Below, one piece after another: positions 2,030-30,020 of a stretch of 32,000 nucleotides of DNA. The notes beneath the pieces were generated by a model. That model searched no databases and was not told where the DNA came from. It worked only from the letters and a program-made list of their open reading frames with translations. A program made the position numbers and the translations under genes. Numbering within the stretch: the stretch's first letter is position 1; each line of letters opens with the position of its first letter. Source of the DNA: Cupriavidus necator (GTDB lineage: Bacteria; Pseudomonadota; Gammaproteobacteria; Burkholderiales; Burkholderiaceae); NCBI RefSeq assembly GCF_016127575.1, contig NZ_CP066018.1, positions 30,001 through 62,000 of the forward strand, given 5' to 3'.

Positions 2030-4114
2030 ATGGACCAAGCCGCCAACGCTACCAATCCTCTGCTGGACTTTTCCGACCTGCCCCGCTTTGCCGAGATCCG
2101 GCCCGAGCACATCAGCCCGGCGCTGGACGTGCTGCTGGAACGCGCGCAGCAGGCCGTCGCCCGCGCCGAAGATCCGGCCACGCCCGCCGACTGGAGCAAC
2201 GCCGTGCAGGCGCTGGAAGCGGCCACCGAGCCGCTGGGCCGCGCCTGGGGCGTGGTCAGCCACCTGAGCGCCGTGGCCGATACGCCCGAACTGCGCAAGG
2301 CTCACGCCGAGAACCTGCCGCGCATGACCGAGTTCTGGTCCTCGCTCGGCCAGAGCCTGGCGCTGTATGAGAAGTACAAGGCGCTGGCTGCCAGCCCGGA
2401 GTTCGCCGGCATGAGCGCGGCGCGCCACCAGCTGATCGAGAACGAACTGCGCGGCTTCCGCCTGGGCGGTGCCGAACTGCCTGAAGGCAAGAAGCCGCGC
2501 TTCGCCGAGATCCAGGAGCAGCAGGCCCAGCTGTCCAAGGCCTTTTCCGACCACGTGCTGGATGCCACCAACGCCTACGCGCTGCATGTCGAGGACGAGG
2601 GCCGCCTGTCCGGCCTGCCCGATGACGCCAGGGAAGCCGCCCGCCATGCCGCAGAGAAGGATGGCAAGGCCGGCTGGAAATTCACGCTGCACTTCCCGTC
2701 CTACTTCCCGGTGCTGCAGTACGCGGACGACCGCGCGCTGCGCCAGACCCTGTATGTAGCCAATGTAACGCGCGCCTCGGAACTGGGCCCGCAGCATGGT
2801 CAGGGCCAGGCCGACTGGGACAATACCGCCAATATGCGCGAGCAGCTGGCCCTGCGCCGCGAAGAGGCGCAGATGCTGGGCTACCAGTGCTACGGCGAAG
2901 TCTCGCTGGTGCCGAAGATGGCCGAATCGCCGGCCGAGGTGCTGAAGTTCCTCGACGAGCTCGCCGTCAAGGCGCGCCCCTACGCCGAGAAGGACTGGGC
3001 CGAAATGAAGGCCTTTGCCGCCGCAGAGCTGGGGCTGCCTGAGCTGGCGCCATGGGATGTCGCCTATGCCTCGGAGAAGCTGCGCCAGCAGCGCTATGCG
3101 TTCTCCGAGCAAGAGGTCAAGCAGTACTTCCCGGAAGCGAAGGTGCTCGAGGGCCTGTTCGGCGTGGTGCAGAAGCTGTTCTCGGTGCGCATCGAGCCCG
3201 AGCAGGCGCAGACCTGGCACAAGGACGCGCGCTTCTTCCGCGTCACCACCGCCGACGGCACGCTGCTGGCCCAGTTCTACATCGACCTGTACGCGCGCGA
3301 AGGCAAGCGCGGCGGCGCCTGGATGGACGACGCGCGCGGCCGCAAGGTGCTGGAGCAAGGCGGCGTGCAGACGCCGGTGGCCTACCTGACCTGCAACTTC
3401 TCCGCGCCGGTGGGCGACAAGCCCGCGCTGTTCACGCACGATGAAGTGATCACCCTGTTCCATGAGTTCGGCCACGGCCTGCACCACATGCTGACGCAGG
3501 TGGGCGAGCTCGGCGTGTCGGGCATCAACGGCGTGGAATGGGATGCGGTGGAGCTGCCGTCGCAGTTCATGGAGAACTTCTGCTGGGAGTACGAGGTGCT
3601 GACCGGCATGACGCAGCACATCGACACCGGCGAGCCGCTGCCACGCGCGCTGTTCGACCGCATGCTGGCCGCCAAGAACTTCCAGAACGGCATGATGACG
3701 CTGCGCCAGATCGTGTTTTCGTCGTTCGACATGCACCTGCACACCGACTTCGATCCGGCCGGCGCCACCTCGGTGCTGGACCTGTCGCGCCAGATCAACG
3801 ACCGCGTGCACGTGGTGCCACAGCATCCGCTGTCGCGCTGGCCGAACACCTTCAGCCATATCTTCGCCGGCGGCTATGCGGCGGGCTACTACAGCTACAA
3901 GTGGGCCGAGGTGCTGTCGGCCGACGTGTACGCGGCGTTCGAGGAAGCCGCTCAGCTGTCGGGCAGCGTGCTCGACAGCGAGACCGGCGCGCGCTACCAG
4001 CGCGAGATCCTGTCGGTGGGCGGCAGCCGTCCGGCAATGGACTCGTTTGTCGCGTTCCGCGGCCGCGCGCCGCAGATCGACGCGCTGCTGCGCCACGGCG
4101 GGATGGCAGCATGA
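2030..4114 (+). CDS. prlC: Oligopeptidase A (M3 family zinc metallopeptidase)
   Basis: 694 aa with the HEFGH zinc motif (LFHEFGHGLHHML) and an M3-family C-terminus (FSHIFAGGYAAGYYSYKWAEVLSAD). ATG at 2030. Confidence 0.95.
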   Translation: MDQAANATNPLLDFSDLPRFAEIRPEHISPALDVLLERAQQAVARAEDPATPADWSNAVQALEAATEPLGRAWGVVSHLSAVADTPELRKAHAENLPRMTEFWSSLGQSLALYEKYKALAASPEFAGMSAARHQLIENELRGFRLGGAELPEGKKPRFAEIQEQQAQLSKAFSDHVLDATNAYALHVEDEGRLSGLPDDAREAARHAAEKDGKAGWKFTLHFPSYFPVLQYADDRALRQTLYVANVTRASELGPQHGQGQADWDNTANMREQLALRREEAQMLGYQCYGEVSLVPKMAESPAEVLKFLDELAVKARPYAEKDWAEMKAFAAAELGLPELAPWDVAYASEKLRQQRYAFSEQEVKQYFPEAKVLEGLFGVVQKLFSVRIEPEQAQTWHKDARFFRVTTADGTLLAQFYIDLYAREGKRGGAWMDDARGRKVLEQGGVQTPVAYLTCNFSAPVGDKPALFTHDEVITLFHEFGHGLHHMLTQVGELGVSGINGVEWDAVELPSQFMENFCWEYEVLTGMTQHIDTGEPLPRALFDRMLAAKNFQNGMMTLRQIVFSSFDMHLHTDFDPAGATSVLDLSRQINDRVHVVPQHPLSRWPNTFSHIFAGGYAAGYYSYKWAEVLSADVYAAFEEAAQLSGSVLDSETGARYQREILSVGGSRPAMDSFVAFRGRAPQIDALLRHGGMAA

Positions 4115-4941
4115 GCGCGGCCGCCCTGCCCGCCAGCGGCCCGCTTCGCATTGCCAGCTGGAACGTCAACTCGCTCAAGGTGCGCCTGCCGCAGGTGCTG
4201 CAATGGCTGGCCGAGCAGGACCAGACCGGCGCGCCGATCGACGCGCTGTGCCTGCAGGAACTGAAGCTGCCGGACGACAAGTACCCGCTGGCCGAACTGG
4301 AGAACGCGGGCTTCCACAGCATCTACACCGGGCAGAAGACGTACAACGGCGTGGCCATCCTCGCACGCGACGCCAGCATGCCCGGCCCCGCCGACGTGGT
4401 GCGCAACATCCCCGGCTTCGAGGACGCGCAGCAGCGCGTGATCGCTGCCACTTATGGCGACCTGCGGCTGGTCTGCGCCTACTTCCCCAACGGGCAGGCG
4501 CCGGACTCGGACAAGTTCGTCTACAAGCTCAAGTGGCTGGACGCGATGACGGCGTGGCTGCGCGAAGAAATGAAGCGCTACCCGAAGCTGGCGCTGCTGG
4601 GCGACTTCAATATCGCGCCGGAAGACCGCGACGTGCACGACCCCAAGAAATGGGAAGGCCAGAACCTGGTCTCGCCGCAGGAGCGCGCCGCCTTTGCCGC
4701 ACTGGTGGAGCTCGGCCTGGCGGATGCGTTCCGCCAGTTCGAGCAGCCGGAGAAGGCCTTCTCGTGGTGGGACTACCGCATGATGGCGTTCCGCCGCAAT
4801 GCGGGCCTGCGCATCGACCACATCCTGCTGTCGCCGGCATTGACCAGCGGCTGCAGCGCCTGCGTGATCGACCGCGTGCCGCGCACGTGGGAGCAGCCGT
4901 CGGACCACACGCCGGTGGTCGCCACGCTCAGTTGCAACTGA
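4111..4941 (+). CDS. xthA: Exodeoxyribonuclease III (AP endonuclease, EEP fold)
   Basis: MSAAALPASGPLRIASWNVNSLKVRL...CLQELK...YNGVAIL...NGQ...LLGDFNIAPEDRD...FSWWDYR...GLRIDHILLS...SDHTPV is collinear with E. coli XthA. Its ATG (4111) overlaps the prlC TGA (4112-4114) as ATGA. Confidence 0.93.
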   Translation: MSAAALPASGPLRIASWNVNSLKVRLPQVLQWLAEQDQTGAPIDALCLQELKLPDDKYPLAELENAGFHSIYTGQKTYNGVAILARDASMPGPADVVRNIPGFEDAQQRVIAATYGDLRLVCAYFPNGQAPDSDKFVYKLKWLDAMTAWLREEMKRYPKLALLGDFNIAPEDRDVHDPKKWEGQNLVSPQERAAFAALVELGLADAFRQFEQPEKAFSWWDYRMMAFRRNAGLRIDHILLSPALTSGCSACVIDRVPRTWEQPSDHTPVVATLSCN

Positions 4942-8066: not shown

Positions 8067-8142
8067 GGGGCGTTAGCTCAGTTGGTAGAGCAGCGGACTC
8101 TTAATCCGTAGGTCGAGTGTTCGAGTCACTCACGCCCCACCA
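8067..8142 (+). tRNA. tRNA-Lys (anticodon CUU), copy 1
   Basis: 76 nt: GGGGCGT acceptor stem pairing with ACGCCCC, then ACCA. D-loop AGCTCAGTTGGTAGAGC. Anticodon arm GCGGA-CTCTTAA-TCCGT (C-U-CUU-A-A). T-arm GTTCGAGTC. Closely resembles E. coli tRNA-Lys. Confidence 0.93.
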
Positions 8143-10835: not shown

Positions 10836-10911
10836 GGGGCGTTAGCTCAGTTGGTAGAGCAGCGGACTCTTAATCCGTAGGTCGAGTGTTCGAGTCACTC
10901 ACGCCCCACCA
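10836..10911 (+). tRNA. tRNA-Lys (anticodon CUU), copy 2, identical to copy 1
   Basis: The 76-nt sequence is identical base for base to 8067-8142 by visual alignment. Confidence 0.93.
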
Positions 10912-21233: not shown

Positions 21234-21467
21234 TCAGCCGTCATTATCAGGCCAGTCGACCGGGCGCGGGCCCATTCGCCACATATTCGGCGGCTCACCC
21301 AATGCCGTGCTCTGGTACATCCAGGCGCCGCAGCCCGTGCAGCGCCAGCGGCTGTCGACCTTGCACCGGTTGCTCATGGCCGCAATGCCAGAGGCAGCCA
21401 GGTGCTCGTGTGGCGGCACGCTGGACGGTTCGCCCACCAGCTGATGACACAGGTCACAGGCGTGCAT
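21234..21467 (-). CDS. 77-aa Cys-containing (zinc-ribbon-like) mini-protein, unknown function
   Basis: MHACDLCHQLVGEP...CKVDSRWRCTGCGAWMYQ... has CxxC at the N-terminus and CxxC at residues 43-46. AGGAG lies 5 nt upstream of the ATG (CAT at 21465-21467). GC3 is high. Confidence 0.6.
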   Translation of the reverse strand: MHACDLCHQLVGEPSSVPPHEHLAASGIAAMSNRCKVDSRWRCTGCGAWMYQSTALGEPPNMWRMGPRPVDWPDNDG

Positions 21468-21506
21468 GGCATCTCCTGTCACGGCGATGATTGCGCGGCG
21501 GCGCCC

Positions 21507-21893
21507 TCAGCCATTGTGCTGCACCCATTGCCGCGCCCACGAAATCGCCGCGGCCCGCGCATCTTCGGGCGTGGCGTGCGTGGCCGGCGGCGCGCCGCCC
21601 TCCAGCACCACGGCGCCCGACTCCCAGATATCGCACAGGGCCTTGAACCGCCCCATGCCCAGCGCGTGGCAATACACGTGGATCACGAAGCCGCCGTACT
21701 CCACCACGTCAGTGGCAGTATCGGTCAGCGCCTGATCCGCGGTGGGATCGGACGGCACCAGCGGCACATCGGGCTGGCGCAGCACCCGCCGCTCCGCGGC
21801 CGTGCGCACCAGCATGGCGCAGGCACCGCCCATCGCCGCGCCCAGCACCACGCCCAAACCAAACCAGCAAGCCCTGCTCCCGCACCTCGCCAT
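21507..21893 (-). CDS. 128-aa N-terminally membrane-anchored hypothetical protein (ORF stays open up to a GTG at 22040; start uncertain)
   Basis: MARCGSRACWFGLGVVLGAAMGGACAMLV is a single TM helix or signal anchor. It is followed by a soluble domain, VVEYGGFVIHVYCHALGMGRFKALCDIWESG...TPEDARAAAISWARQWVQHNG. GGGGGA precedes the ATG at 21893. The gene ends 39 nt before the next gene, so it looks operon-linked. Confidence 0.5.
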   Translation of the reverse strand: MARCGSRACWFGLGVVLGAAMGGACAMLVRTAAERRVLRQPDVPLVPSDPTADQALTDTATDVVEYGGFVIHVYCHALGMGRFKALCDIWESGAVVLEGGAPPATHATPEDARAAAISWARQWVQHNG

Positions 21894-22060
21894 GGCATCC
21901 CCCGCAGCGACCCTGCCGGTCCTGGCACGACCATGCTGTGCGACCGGCATCGCTTTCAGGTTATACCAATCCAGGCCGACACCGCCTGCCACCAACTTCG
22001 ACGCGGCAATGGCACAGCGCCGCAGGGTGTGGCGGCGCACGAAAATGAGAATCGTCGGGG

Positions 22061-22089
22061 ATGACCGAAGCGCTGGCCAGAGCTATACT
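22061..22089 (+). promoter_or_regulatory. sigma70-type promoter for the 86-aa ORF
   Basis: -35 ATGACC (22061-22066), a 17-nt spacer, then -10 TATACT (22084-22089). The ATG follows 31 nt after the -10. Confidence 0.5.
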
Positions 22090-22105
22090 GTACATCCATA
22101 CAGTA
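22086..22105. promoter_or_regulatory. LexA operator (SOS box), E. coli / Betaproteobacteria type
   Basis: TACTGT-ACATCCAT-ACAGTA is a perfect CTGT-N8-ACAG with the flanking TA/TA also palindromic (12 fixed positions). It overlaps the -10 hexamer and the predicted transcription start. Confidence 0.72.
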
Positions 22106-22119
22106 TCCGGATACTGCCC

Positions 22120-22380
22120 ATGCCCTTGTACCAGTCCGATTCCATCCTGCTCGAGGCCTACTACTTCGGCGACGACTGCGAATCCCTGCGCCTGCCTTGC
22201 GGCAGTGTCTGCGTGGACGCCGGCGCCATCCTCGTCGACGGCATCGAGCCACTCCAGTTGCAGGCCCTGCGCTGGACGCCGGATTTCCTGTCCTTCGACG
22301 CCCAGGGCACCCGTCACCGCTACCCGGTCAGCCGCCCCGCCCTCGTCGGCCCCGGCCAGGCACGCTTCGCACTGCTTTAA
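22120..22380 (+). CDS. 86-aa hypothetical protein, putatively LexA-regulated
   Basis: MPLYQSDSILLEAYYFGDDCESLRLPCGSVCVDAGAILVDGIEPLQLQALRWTPDFLSFDAQGTRHRYPVSRPALVGPGQARFALL has strongly C/G-ending codons typical of this genome. In-frame codons upstream of 22120 are rare types (AGA, CGA, GTA, ATA, AGT), supporting the 22120 start. The SD is weak. Confidence 0.6.
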   Translation: MPLYQSDSILLEAYYFGDDCESLRLPCGSVCVDAGAILVDGIEPLQLQALRWTPDFLSFDAQGTRHRYPVSRPALVGPGQARFALL

Positions 22381-22423
22381 GCTACGGCTTCCGCATCGCC
22401 GATGCGCCACGCCGCTTGCCCAC

Positions 22424-22930
22424 ATGCCAGACCTCAGCCCGACCGCCAGCCAACTGATCCGCTCGCTCGACCTGCAGCCGCATCCGGAAGGCGGCTACTA
22501 CCGCGAAACCTATCGCGGCGAAGAGCAGGTCGTCTGCCAGGACGGTCGCACACGCGCAGCCTGCACCGCGATCCACTACATGCTGTGCGGCAACGACTAT
22601 TCCGCGTGGCATCGCATCCGGTCCGACGAACTCTGGCACTACCACGCAGGCTCCCCCGTGGACGTGCACCGGATCGTGGACGGCACCATCGTCACGCAGC
22701 GCCTGGGCGACCCGCTGCGGCATCCCGGCGCGGCCTTCCAGGCAATGGTGCCCGCCGGCCAATGGTTTGCCGCCGAACGCGTGGATATGGCCGATGGCGT
22801 GGACTTCGCCCTGGTCGGCTGCACCGTGGCACCAGCCTTCCAGTTCAGCGAATTCGAACTGGCCGACGCAACGGCGCTTGCCGGCCTGGCAAGCGGACAT
22901 GACGCGCTGTTGCGCAGGCTGACGCGCTAG
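22424..22930 (+). CDS. Cupin-fold protein, DUF985 family
   Basis: 168 aa. LIRSLDLQPHPEGGYYRETYR...TAIHYML...SAWHRIRSDELWHYHAGSP...FQAMVPAGQWFAAE...FALVGCTVAPAFQFSEFEL is the characteristic DUF985 pattern. Confidence 0.85.
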   Translation: MPDLSPTASQLIRSLDLQPHPEGGYYRETYRGEEQVVCQDGRTRAACTAIHYMLCGNDYSAWHRIRSDELWHYHAGSPVDVHRIVDGTIVTQRLGDPLRHPGAAFQAMVPAGQWFAAERVDMADGVDFALVGCTVAPAFQFSEFELADATALAGLASGHDALLRRLTR

Positions 22931-22945
22931 TCTCCACCCAAGAAA

Positions 22946-22976
22946 CAGCCCGCCGCGGTGGGGTGCGGGCGGGCTG
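22946..22976 (+). terminator. Hairpin after the cupin gene (possible terminator, no U-tract)
   Basis: CAGCCCGCC - 13 nt - GGCGGGCTG, beginning 16 nt after the stop codon. Confidence 0.35.
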
Positions 22977-23157
22977 GTGAGTACAGCGGGACCAGTCTAA
23001 GCCAGGGTGCCGGCGGGCCATGACGGGAGAACCTGGGTATCTCGCCGCCTTTGCTGGCAACGACCGAGCAGCGCGTATAGCCCAACAGGCACTCAGGATG
23101 CGGATTCATATCCTGCAGCACAGATAATCTTGGGCTCACCCATTATTTGCAGCTACA

Positions 23158-23412
23158 ATTATTGCCAAGGATGTCAGCAACCAGTCCAAGCACGGTGTTT
23201 CGCTCGCGCTGGCAGCAAGGTTCCACTGGCCGAGCCTGTTGGCAGGGGTAGATGACAGGGCCGACTACAGAGAACTCCGCGAGATCGGCTTCGGCGTCAT
23301 TGATGAGCGCCTCTATTGCGTGGTGTTCACCCAGGGCGGGAATGCAATGCATATCATCAGCCTGCGCAAGGCCAACAAACGCGAGGCAAGGAACTATGTC
23401 GACCAAGCCTAA
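23158..23412 (+). CDS. brnT: BrnT-like toxin (DUF497 family) lacking a canonical start codon; possibly ATT-initiated or N-terminally decayed
   Basis: The frame open from 23128 (after TAA at 23125) reads SWAHPLFAATIIAKDVSNQSKHGVSLALAARFHWPSLLAGVDDRADYRELREIGFGVIDERLYCVVFTQGGNAMHIISLRKANKREARNYVDQA, then TAA at 23410-23412. It matches the BrnT motifs K-x3-N-x2-KHG-[VI]-S, D-x-R-x-DY-x-E-x-R and R-IIS-x-RKA-x3-E. There is no ATG, GTG or TTG in frame before the KHG motif. The listed start is the first in-frame ATT. Confidence 0.55.
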   Translation: MIAKDVSNQSKHGVSLALAARFHWPSLLAGVDDRADYRELREIGFGVIDERLYCVVFTQGGNAMHIISLRKANKREARNYVDQA

Positions 23413-23950
23413 GATCGTCGTGCCGACCGACGAAGAGGACGCGGCCATCAACCGCGGCATCGCTGCGGATCCGGACACGTACGAGGTCTCGGCGAAAGAG
23501 ATGCAGGCCATGAAGCCGCTCGGCAAACGCGGCCGCGGTCGACCCAGGCTCGCCAGCACCAAGGAACTGGTGAGCATTCGCTATGACGCGGACATACTGG
23601 ATGCATTCCGCGCCAGCGGGGAAGGTTGGCAGACGCTGATGAACGCAACGCTGAACGTTGCGCTTCAACAGGCCATGGACATTACCTACGTTGGGGGCCC
23701 ACTGCATGGAACCACGGTCCGTGACAACCCCAACACCTTGTCATCCGTTCTCACCTATCGCCCGGTAACAGCCTTCGCGAACGACCCTGCGCGTCAGGCA
23801 ACGTATCGTCGAGTAACCCTCGAACGTACCATTGGAAACAACGTCGAACGCCGCGAGTTCTTTGTGAGTGACAGTCTCACCGACAGCGAAGCCGATTCCC
23901 TGGTCCAGCGAGAAGACCTTTGGCCTATGTCAGAGCCACACCATGCCTGA
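23396..23950 (+). CDS. brnA: BrnA-family antitoxin (DUF4415) fused in frame to a ~90-aa C-terminal extension
   Basis: MSTKPKIVVPTDEEDAAINRGIAADPDTYEVSAKEM...GKRGRGRPRLASTKELVSIRYDADILDAFRASGEGWQTLMNATL matches the BrnA pattern (GRP...V[ST][IL]R[LY]D.D[VI]L..F[RK]A.G.G[YW]QT..N..L). The ATG at 23396 overlaps the brnT-like frame by 17 nt. The ORF then continues for 92 more codons. Confidence 0.78.
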   Translation: MSTKPKIVVPTDEEDAAINRGIAADPDTYEVSAKEMQAMKPLGKRGRGRPRLASTKELVSIRYDADILDAFRASGEGWQTLMNATLNVALQQAMDITYVGGPLHGTTVRDNPNTLSSVLTYRPVTAFANDPARQATYRRVTLERTIGNNVERREFFVSDSLTDSEADSLVQREDLWPMSEPHHA

Positions 23951-24220: not shown

Positions 24221-24532
24221 TTATCCACGCTTGCATTCGACCTTCTCTTCATATTCACCGTCGTCCTTCCATTCGCGCTCGATCAGGCAAGGGCCGTCGC
24301 GGTACTTCTGCTTCCGCTCATAGCCACGCGGACCGCCCTTGCATTTGCGCTCTTCCTTGTATTCGCCATCGCGCTTCTGTTCGCGTTCGATTTCACAAGG
24401 GCCGCTACGGAATTTCTCTTTGTACTCACCGCCACGATATGCGCTCGGGTAGCCGCGGTCGTCGGCGCGTGCGGCAGCCGCGGCCGTCAGCCAGAGGAGC
24501 GCAAGGGTAGCCACACAGAGCTTTCGGAACAT
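24221..24532 (-). CDS. Small secreted, highly charged protein with two Cys-containing internal repeats (unknown function)
   Basis: Signal peptide MFRKLCVATLALLWLTAAAAARA-DD. Two 28-aa repeats, KFRSGPCEIEREQKRDGEYKEERKCKGG and KYRDGPCLIEREWKDDGEYEEKVECKRG, share 18/28 residues. The SD is weak, and an alternative ATG lies at 24571. Confidence 0.6.
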   Translation of the reverse strand: MFRKLCVATLALLWLTAAAAARADDRGYPSAYRGGEYKEKFRSGPCEIEREQKRDGEYKEERKCKGGPRGYERKQKYRDGPCLIEREWKDDGEYEEKVECKRG

Positions 24533-24630
24533 AAGTGGGGAATCGGTCGGGAGGATGGCAGAGCATAGCAACGGGCATCGGCGACGGCTGTATCAAAGCG
24601 TTACCGCACCGGCCGGCCATTTCCACGCAG

Positions 24631-24667: not shown

Positions 24668-24673
24668 TTTGTC

Positions 24674-24750
<77 letters not shown>

Positions 24751-29992: not shown

Positions 29993-30020
29993 GTAATTCT
30001 CCTTTCGTTTTCGTCAGGGG

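Follow-up and report, generated by a model that had tools for sequence, protein, structure and literature searches.

A conserved LexA-type operator on the predicted promoter of a gene for a small, predicted all-beta protein in Cupriavidus and its mobile elements

The LexA operators of Beta- and Gammaproteobacteria share a 16-bp palindrome with an AT-rich spacer and TA flanks, and overlap, or lie just downstream of, the promoter of the gene that they control. In Cupriavidus, LexA sites have been predicted at lexA, recA, imuA, dinB, and splB of C. necator H16, C. metallidurans CH34, and C. taiwanensis (Sanchez-Alberola et al. 2012; PMC3323433), and the regulon table of the same work, which covers multi-chromosome Betaproteobacteria, also includes two hypothetical genes, hypA (H16_B0943 / Rmet_1637, with two boxes) and hypB (Burkholderia only). 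A further group comprises the LexA-controlled antirepressor modules of temperate phages, such as Tum of phage 186, GfoA, GftA, and GfhA of the Gifsy phages, and AntC of N15, in which a small gene has its own LexA-repressed promoter, often at a prophage end or in the immunity region, and which can act in trans (PMC3121763). Here, we describe a stretch of 32,000 nucleotides from Cupriavidus necator (positions 30,001 to 62,000 of the forward strand of NZ_CP066018.1, assembly GCF_016127575.1; hereafter the window), in which a LexA-type operator lies on the predicted promoter of a gene for an 86-aa protein, orf86, followed by a gene of the DUF985/Cupin_5 family. As judged from sequence comparison, this operator very probably places orf86, and probably also the cupin gene, under LexA repression that would be relieved by RecA-stimulated LexA cleavage.

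The window, with a GC content of 66.1%, contains a single CTGT-N8-ACAG site, TACTGTACATCCATACAGTA, an exact match with the form of a 16-bp imperfect palindrome with an AT-rich spacer and TA flanks. It is positioned on the ATGACC-17-TATACT promoter, the only sigma-70-like promoter found on either strand in a consensus scan of positions 21400-23300 (Table 1), and the last four bases of the TATACT hexamer are at the same time the first four bases of the LexA box, within its left arm. The operator is thus predicted to overlap the promoter of the gene it regulates at the -10 hexamer and the likely transcription start, which is expected near 22096-22097. An earlier note on this DNA had proposed the same arrangement of box and promoter, and direct reading together with the promoter scan confirmed the -35 hexamer, the 17-nt spacer, and the -10 overlap; the distance from the end of the box to the orf86 ATG (22120), given there as 15 nt, is in fact 14 nt. 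Directly 5′ of the -35 hexamer (22043-22056) lies a further motif, AAAATGAGAATC (AAATTGAGAATC in relatives), which is kept in the C. necator/taiwanensis clade and not in the pinatubonensis/laharis clade, and which may represent a second regulatory site or a UP-like element.

The quality of the site was evaluated with a position matrix derived from 22 distinct predicted LexA sites of C. necator H16, C. metallidurans CH34, and C. taiwanensis (supplement 4 of PMC3323433), including those at these strains' own lexA and recA genes, where the same motif is predicted in all three. On this matrix, TACTGTACATCCATACAGTA scores 37.2 bits, above the median of 34.4 bits of the 22 published predicted sites (range 27.3-41.8), and the runner-up site in the window reaches 4.9 bits. 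Among 300 simulated 32-kb sequences, the top score was 18.3 bits, and none attained 27.3. The bare CTGT-N8-ACAG core is not rare (0.28 occurrences expected per window; present in 25 of 100 shuffles), and the full 12-position pattern TACTGT-N8-ACAGTA occurred in none of the 100 shuffles. The site is a standard LexA box of the Beta/Gammaproteobacterial type.

Conservation of the site was followed through orthologous loci found by genome scan in 19 Cupriavidus genomes, one of them bearing the record title Ralstonia pickettii RAL3; the C. metallidurans CH34 orthologue is ABF08063.1. Upstream of the orthologue, all 19 genomes retain the box and the -10 hexamer, the box being exact in 18 and having a single mismatch in C. 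laharis (CTGG), so that the persistence of the box in relatives, suggested earlier as a check, was observed. In an alignment of 17 orthologous upstream regions, the invariant columns are essentially those of the -35 hexamer (ATGAC, invariant or nearly so in 16 of the 17) and of TATACTGTAyATyCATACAGTA, with freely substituted flanks; synonymous divergence among the genomes reaches about 1.0, and these columns are kept nonetheless. The element TATACTGTA is constant in nearly all loci of the wider orf86 family, prophage and plasmid copies included. An insertion in the C. oxalaticus group has produced a longer 5′ leader and left the fused -10/box unit intact. Between box and ATG, the 5′ leader of one locus (L011, 2904-3006) carries tandem duplications of CTGCCATATGCCCC.

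The orf86 reading frame is intact in all 19 genomes, with a ratio of nonsynonymous to synonymous substitution rates (dN/dS) of 0.11-0.29 and a third-position GC content (GC3) of 0.88; it is a real gene under purifying selection. Its product was modeled by AlphaFold2 as a compact all-beta domain with high confidence (predicted local distance difference test, pLDDT, 94.2; predicted template modeling score, pTM, 0.84). The description of this product in the earlier note as unrecognizable, and as unlike known SOS proteins, held up against the searches: no match was obtained in Pfam, NCBIfam, PADLOC, or a PDB sequence profile search, family and profile searches revealed no homology to SulA, DinI, YebG, or ImuA-type proteins, and Foldseek with the orf86 model returned nothing at E <= 0.001 in PDB or BFVD, so that the proposed structure and profile checks yielded a confident all-beta fold with no significant relative. 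The top Foldseek matches, PilZ domains and protease half-barrels, are non-significant (E >= 0.02; template modeling score, TM, about 0.45-0.5). The resemblance to protease half-barrels was rejected on account of this non-significant score. PilZ and other small split beta-barrel domains resemble orf86 only to the extent of these best non-significant matches, and an assignment of orf86 as a PilZ domain was likewise discarded, the match to the BcsA PilZ domain reaching only E 0.07 and TM 0.45, with no Pfam PilZ match. The cyclic di-GMP-binding motifs of PilZ domains are RxxxR and (D/N)xSxxG; on direct reading (MPLYQSDS..., TPDFLSFDAQG), orf86 lacks the N-terminal RxxxR, and the spacing does not fit D/NxSxxG. 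The three cysteines of orf86 are located at positions 20, 27, and 31, with only C27 invariant in the family. Since the protein is predicted to be a single small beta domain without a catalytic signature, we suppose that it works by binding to DNA or to a partner protein; given its size and modeled fold, a role as an enzyme is unlikely.

The protein belongs to a small family that is confined to Cupriavidus and Ralstonia and their mobile elements. An exhaustive hidden Markov model search of 1.84 billion representative proteins retrieved only 26 relatives of orf86, the named ones coming from Cupriavidus and Ralstonia, with no Burkholderia members, and the only PHROG matched was phrog_35995, an unannotated family that corresponds to 3 of 20 family members. 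The gene has no curated family, but it does not stand alone, as it is part of a mobile-element family in which 36 of 41 loci carry a box. This survey covered 41 loci encoding a family member (cited below by their L numbers and own coordinates where needed), with the box sought within 450 nt upstream: an exact CTGT-N8-ACAG was present in 34, and a one-mismatch box at the same place in two; one locus is truncated, and four have no box, three of them from Ralstonia and the other representing a distant metagenomic clade. The remaining 257 kb of these loci contain only seven exact boxes, six of which precede other small genes. In prophage, plasmid, and island copies, the box lies at -30 to -45 relative to the orf86-family gene, and the genes upstream are entirely different.

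The contexts of the family bear no relation to each other. Apart from the core locus, which adjoins the gene for NAD-glutamate dehydrogenase (gdh), they include a C. gilardii island (box at -31), another C. gilardii copy whose box is decaying, located at the tRNA-Pro/MerR site, a prophage remnant of C. basilensis in which the box precedes an 81-aa gene upstream of the homologue, a three-gene operon under one box (a zinc-ribbon gene, the homologue, and a YdjM-family gene), a 238-kb plasmid of C. pinatubonensis, where the homologue directly follows an ATP-dependent DNA-ligase-domain gene, eight IMG/VR viral contigs, all with boxes, and five metagenome contigs. Two of the contigs (L046, L047) are myovirus-like, with tail sheath, tape measure, and DnaB genes, and encode a CI-like repressor directly upstream of the orf86 homologue (L046 8798-9811; L047 6992-8002), with two helix-turn-helix-like regions and an S24/UmuD-like domain containing GQSMEP; the S24 peptidase domain is the LexA-type self-cleavage domain. 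In some loci, the homologue appears to be translationally coupled to a preceding DUF2471 gene that carries the box, as suggested by the overlap of the DUF2471 gene with the homologue start (ATG...TGA). DUF2471 is a Burkholderiales-only family of unknown function, and its genes lie at L033 361-648 (with two boxes), at 589-879 of L041 and L043, and at L042 288-575. In L040 (2750-3397), a gene two positions downstream of the homologue, with a product beginning MCTNY, was recognized by eye as SRAP-like (SOS response-associated peptidase). The Ralstonia homologues without a box (L020/L021 and L028/L029) are found at 3520-4261, and in L028 and L029 the homologue starts 17 nt after a gene for a plasmid fertility inhibition factor (PFIN, PF22162), with KfrA and insertion sequence (IS) genes nearby. 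When the window protein and three other members of the family were compared with GenBank phages by tblastn, no match was obtained, and the phage link therefore comes from predicted prophage contigs only; for the 109-aa clade of the family, nothing was found in viral contigs.

The gene downstream of orf86 is a full-length member of DUF985/Cupin_5 (160 bits, the gathering cut-off being 25; profile positions 2-139 of 139 covered), a family for which, to our knowledge, no SOS link is known. Its presence 43 nt after the orf86 stop, as described in the earlier note, was verified, and the cupin gene lies at the same spacing in 18 of the 19 orthologous loci, its pairing with orf86 being specific to the Cupriavidus core locus. 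The spacer between the two genes contains no terminator-like site (fold z = -0.57), which, together with its length of only 43 nt, makes co-transcription with orf86 probable. Beyond the cupin gene, a GC-rich hairpin is a candidate only for the operon end, as its energy is not significantly below that of shuffles (z = -1.09). In a Cupriavidus metagenome-assembled genome (L009, 3001-4651), box and orf86 are kept and the cupin gene is absent.

These observations are best explained by a classical regulatory scheme. In the undamaged cell, a LexA dimer on TACTGT-N8-ACAGTA would cover the -10 hexamer and the start site and thereby block RNA polymerase; upon DNA damage, RecA filaments would trigger LexA self-cleavage and the putative two-gene operon would be switched on, with read-through from the orf86 promoter reaching the DUF985 cupin gene. 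The orf86 locus is most likely a chromosomally fixed, domesticated copy of a small SOS cassette consisting of promoter, operator, and gene, the same cassette being encountered in Cupriavidus at the att-proximal ends of predicted tRNA-Pro prophages, beside CI-type repressors, and on plasmids. Several points weigh against this scheme. The lexA gene is outside the window, and the LexA specificity applied here is borrowed from published predictions for related strains. The Shine-Dalgarno sequence of orf86 is weak, a GGA about 10 nt upstream. Homologues in Ralstonia (L020, L021, L028, L029) and in the distant metagenomic clade (L023, L024) have no box, so LexA control does not extend to the whole family. 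For the cupin gene, just two features, the short gap and the absent terminator, speak for co-transcription, and it is missing from the orthologous locus L009 and from every mobile copy; it may therefore be a mere passenger.

Other explanations of the site differ in what they take LexA to control, if anything. A fortuitous palindrome, or a decayed remnant that has lost LexA binding, would agree with the expected frequency of the bare core, but it is hardly credible in view of the shuffles that never yielded the full pattern, the matrix score unapproached in the 300 simulations, and the box kept in all 19 loci at a synonymous divergence of about 1, the last of which effectively refutes this reading. 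The earlier note also raised control of the minus-strand genes; on such a reading, the operator would mainly or additionally act on the divergent string of small genes (21507-21893 and beyond). The two directions share a 226-nt intergenic region (21894-22119), the site is palindromic, and most Cupriavidus genomes keep these genes in synteny with orf86; however, the conserved start of the first of them (M50 of the naive open reading frame (ORF), at 21893) is located about 190 nt from the box, the scan found no minus-strand promoter near it, the site scores 37.2 bits on the plus strand and 26.6 bits on the minus strand, and in mobile copies the box tracks the orf86 family at -30 to -45, whatever lies upstream. 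Divergent control is accordingly improbable, and LexA repression of orf86 itself remains the preferred reading.

As to what a LexA-controlled orf86 would do, analogy with 186 Tum, Gifsy GfoA/GftA, and N15 AntC suggests a prophage antirepressor or induction factor, a small damage-induced protein that would bind a phage repressor and thereby inactivate it, with the chromosomal copy acting in trans on resident prophages. LexA-controlled small prophage antirepressors are an established class (PMC3121763), and the prophage copies of orf86 share the layout of these modules: relatives occur at prophage ends beside att cores and, in the two myovirus-like contigs, directly downstream of a CI-like repressor gene, and the protein is small and single-domain, without an enzymatic signature. 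Nevertheless, orf86 resembles neither DinI/Tum nor any annotated antirepressor in sequence or fold, as judged from Pfam and PHROG searches and from Foldseek searches of PDB and BFVD, and its family has no detectable homology to the Tum/Gfo/AntC modules. The repressor adjoining the homologue in L046 and L047 is of the self-cleaving type (S24, GQSMEP), and these phages should therefore not need an antirepressor, so that, unlike the described modules, at least two phages with orf86 relatives have a self-cleaving CI-type repressor. Moreover, the window orf86 resides in a conserved core locus, joined to a cupin gene, and is under genus-wide purifying selection without an obvious intact prophage adjoining. 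We thus consider an antirepressor role rather unlikely. A host SOS effector derived from phages, such as a division or replication inhibitor or a damage-tolerance factor, maybe working with the cupin, would account for a gene and operator kept genus-wide in the core genome under purifying selection, and damage-linked neighbors occur elsewhere in the family (the YdjM-family, ATP-dependent DNA-ligase-domain, and SRAP-like genes). Such support is by association, and the neighbors vary widely among contexts; together with the lack of homology to SulA, DinI, YebG, and ImuA-type proteins, this keeps the host-effector proposal tentative and somewhat doubtful.

Table 1. Features of the orf86 locus and its surroundings, in window coordinates
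Feature	Position	Strand	Basis or remark
Predicted -35 hexamer, ATGACC	22061..22066	+	consensus promoter scan; conserved in orthologues
Predicted -10 hexamer, TATACT, 17-nt spacer from -35	22084..22089	+	direct reading, promoter scan
Putative LexA (SOS) operator, TACTGTACATCCATACAGTA, CTGT-N8-ACAG type	22086..22105	.	direct reading, matrix score, conservation
orf86, 86-aa protein of undescribed family, predicted compact all-beta domain	22120..22380	+	intact ORF, dN/dS, AlphaFold2
DUF985 / Cupin_5 gene	22424..22930	+	Pfam PF06172, E 4.7e-47
GC-rich hairpin, candidate operon end, stem CAGCCCGCCGCGG/CGCGGGCGGGCTG	22947..22976	+	no U-tract
tRNA-Pro(GGG), 3′ end facing the orf86 locus	24674..24750	-	Rfam; att copies in viral contigs
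Small Cys-rich ORF, 82 aa, context, outside the operon	21234..21482	-	viral-contig relative

The chromosomal surroundings of orf86 follow a conserved order in the 19 genomes: gdh, three or four small minus-strand genes, the box, orf86, the cupin gene, a variable segment, tRNA-Pro(GGG), and a MerR-family regulator gene. Exact 45-52-nt copies of the 3′ part of this tRNA, constituting attachment (att) cores, are present in the viral contigs L036 (247-291), L039 (4038-4083), and L040 (1867-1918) and match window positions 24673-24724. In L036 and L040, the att core lies 130-160 nt from the LexA box of the family, which makes the cassette the first gene within the prophages that integrate at this tRNA. 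Partial copies of the tRNA also occur in the chromosomal loci L003, L004, L007, and L018; in the window, no second tRNA-Pro att remnant was found, and an Rfam scan of the window detected only tRNAs. The small Cys-rich minus-strand ORF has a 64%-identical homologue in L040, 1.5 kb from the orf86 homologue of that contig, and also matches phrog_27215 (E 2.5e-4).

Additional boxes have been observed around the same tRNA. Just 3′ of the cupin gene, a second exact LexA box is found in L008, L010, L011, L013, and L014 at about 3963-4550, preceding an 82-aa zinc-ribbon gene that is 50% identical to the gene before the orf86 homologue of L027 and is followed by a 97-aa gene and then a DUF2188 gene; in L039 (4227-4533), the gene behind a box is related to the 97/112-aa gene. 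The tRNA-Pro locus thus harbors a cluster of several small SOS cassettes, and tRNA-Pro(GGG), marked by the att cores as a prophage integration hot spot in Cupriavidus, collects such cassettes; none of the extra ones is present in the window. The segment between cupin gene and tRNA-Pro in the window contains, at 23239-23950, a fragment of a BrnT toxin that matches only profile positions 32-77 of 77 and, after it, a 232-aa ORF that combines a BrnA antitoxin domain with a long C-terminal extension. Most orthologous loci lack this segment, which is therefore a strain-variable insertion. A 116-aa minus-strand ORF at 24221-24571, with an N-terminal hydrophobic segment and internal repeats (…GEYKEE.KCKGGPRGYE.KQKYR.GPC.IERE…), is kept beside tRNA-Pro in several loci. 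Elsewhere in the window, two tRNA-Lys(CTT) genes with identical Rfam scores (8067-8142 and 10836-10911), 2.7 kb apart, flank an amidohydrolase gene and a LysR regulator gene.

With regard to the published regulon, orf86 is absent from the multi-chromosome Betaproteobacteria table of PMC3323433. The hypothetical genes hypA and hypB are set apart from it by description, differing in box number and taxonomic range, and since the orf86 family has no Burkholderia members, orf86 is not obviously either of them. The DUF2471 gene of the mobile loci might be the published hypA, but no H16 or CH34 locus tags were among the matches of the DUF2471 search, and no paper mentioning DUF2471 was found in the literature. 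Full-text literature on the LexA regulon or on mitomycin transcriptomes in Cupriavidus yielded no report on orf86. What appears to be new is thus a genus-wide, previously unlisted gene of the Cupriavidus SOS regulon, as predicted from its operator, together with an apparently SOS-controlled mobile-element family, and not a new kind of system.

The regulation itself is textbook; the interest lies in an unnamed family, without a Pfam entry or a structure, whose link to the LexA box is unusually consistent across chromosomes, prophages, and a plasmid. Because this link is kept in unrelated contexts, the product is expected to be needed specifically during DNA damage, and the family-wide LexA coupling makes an uncharacterized protein directly testable. 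It is possible, if still speculative, that the 86-aa beta-barrel proteins form an unrecognized class of directly LexA-controlled effectors, spread by tRNA-Pro prophages and plasmids, with one copy domesticated and with a specific damage-triggered job. If this is true, the effector could be a structurally new antirepressor or modulator of prophage induction, or the missing SOS inhibitor of division or replication of the Burkholderiaceae.

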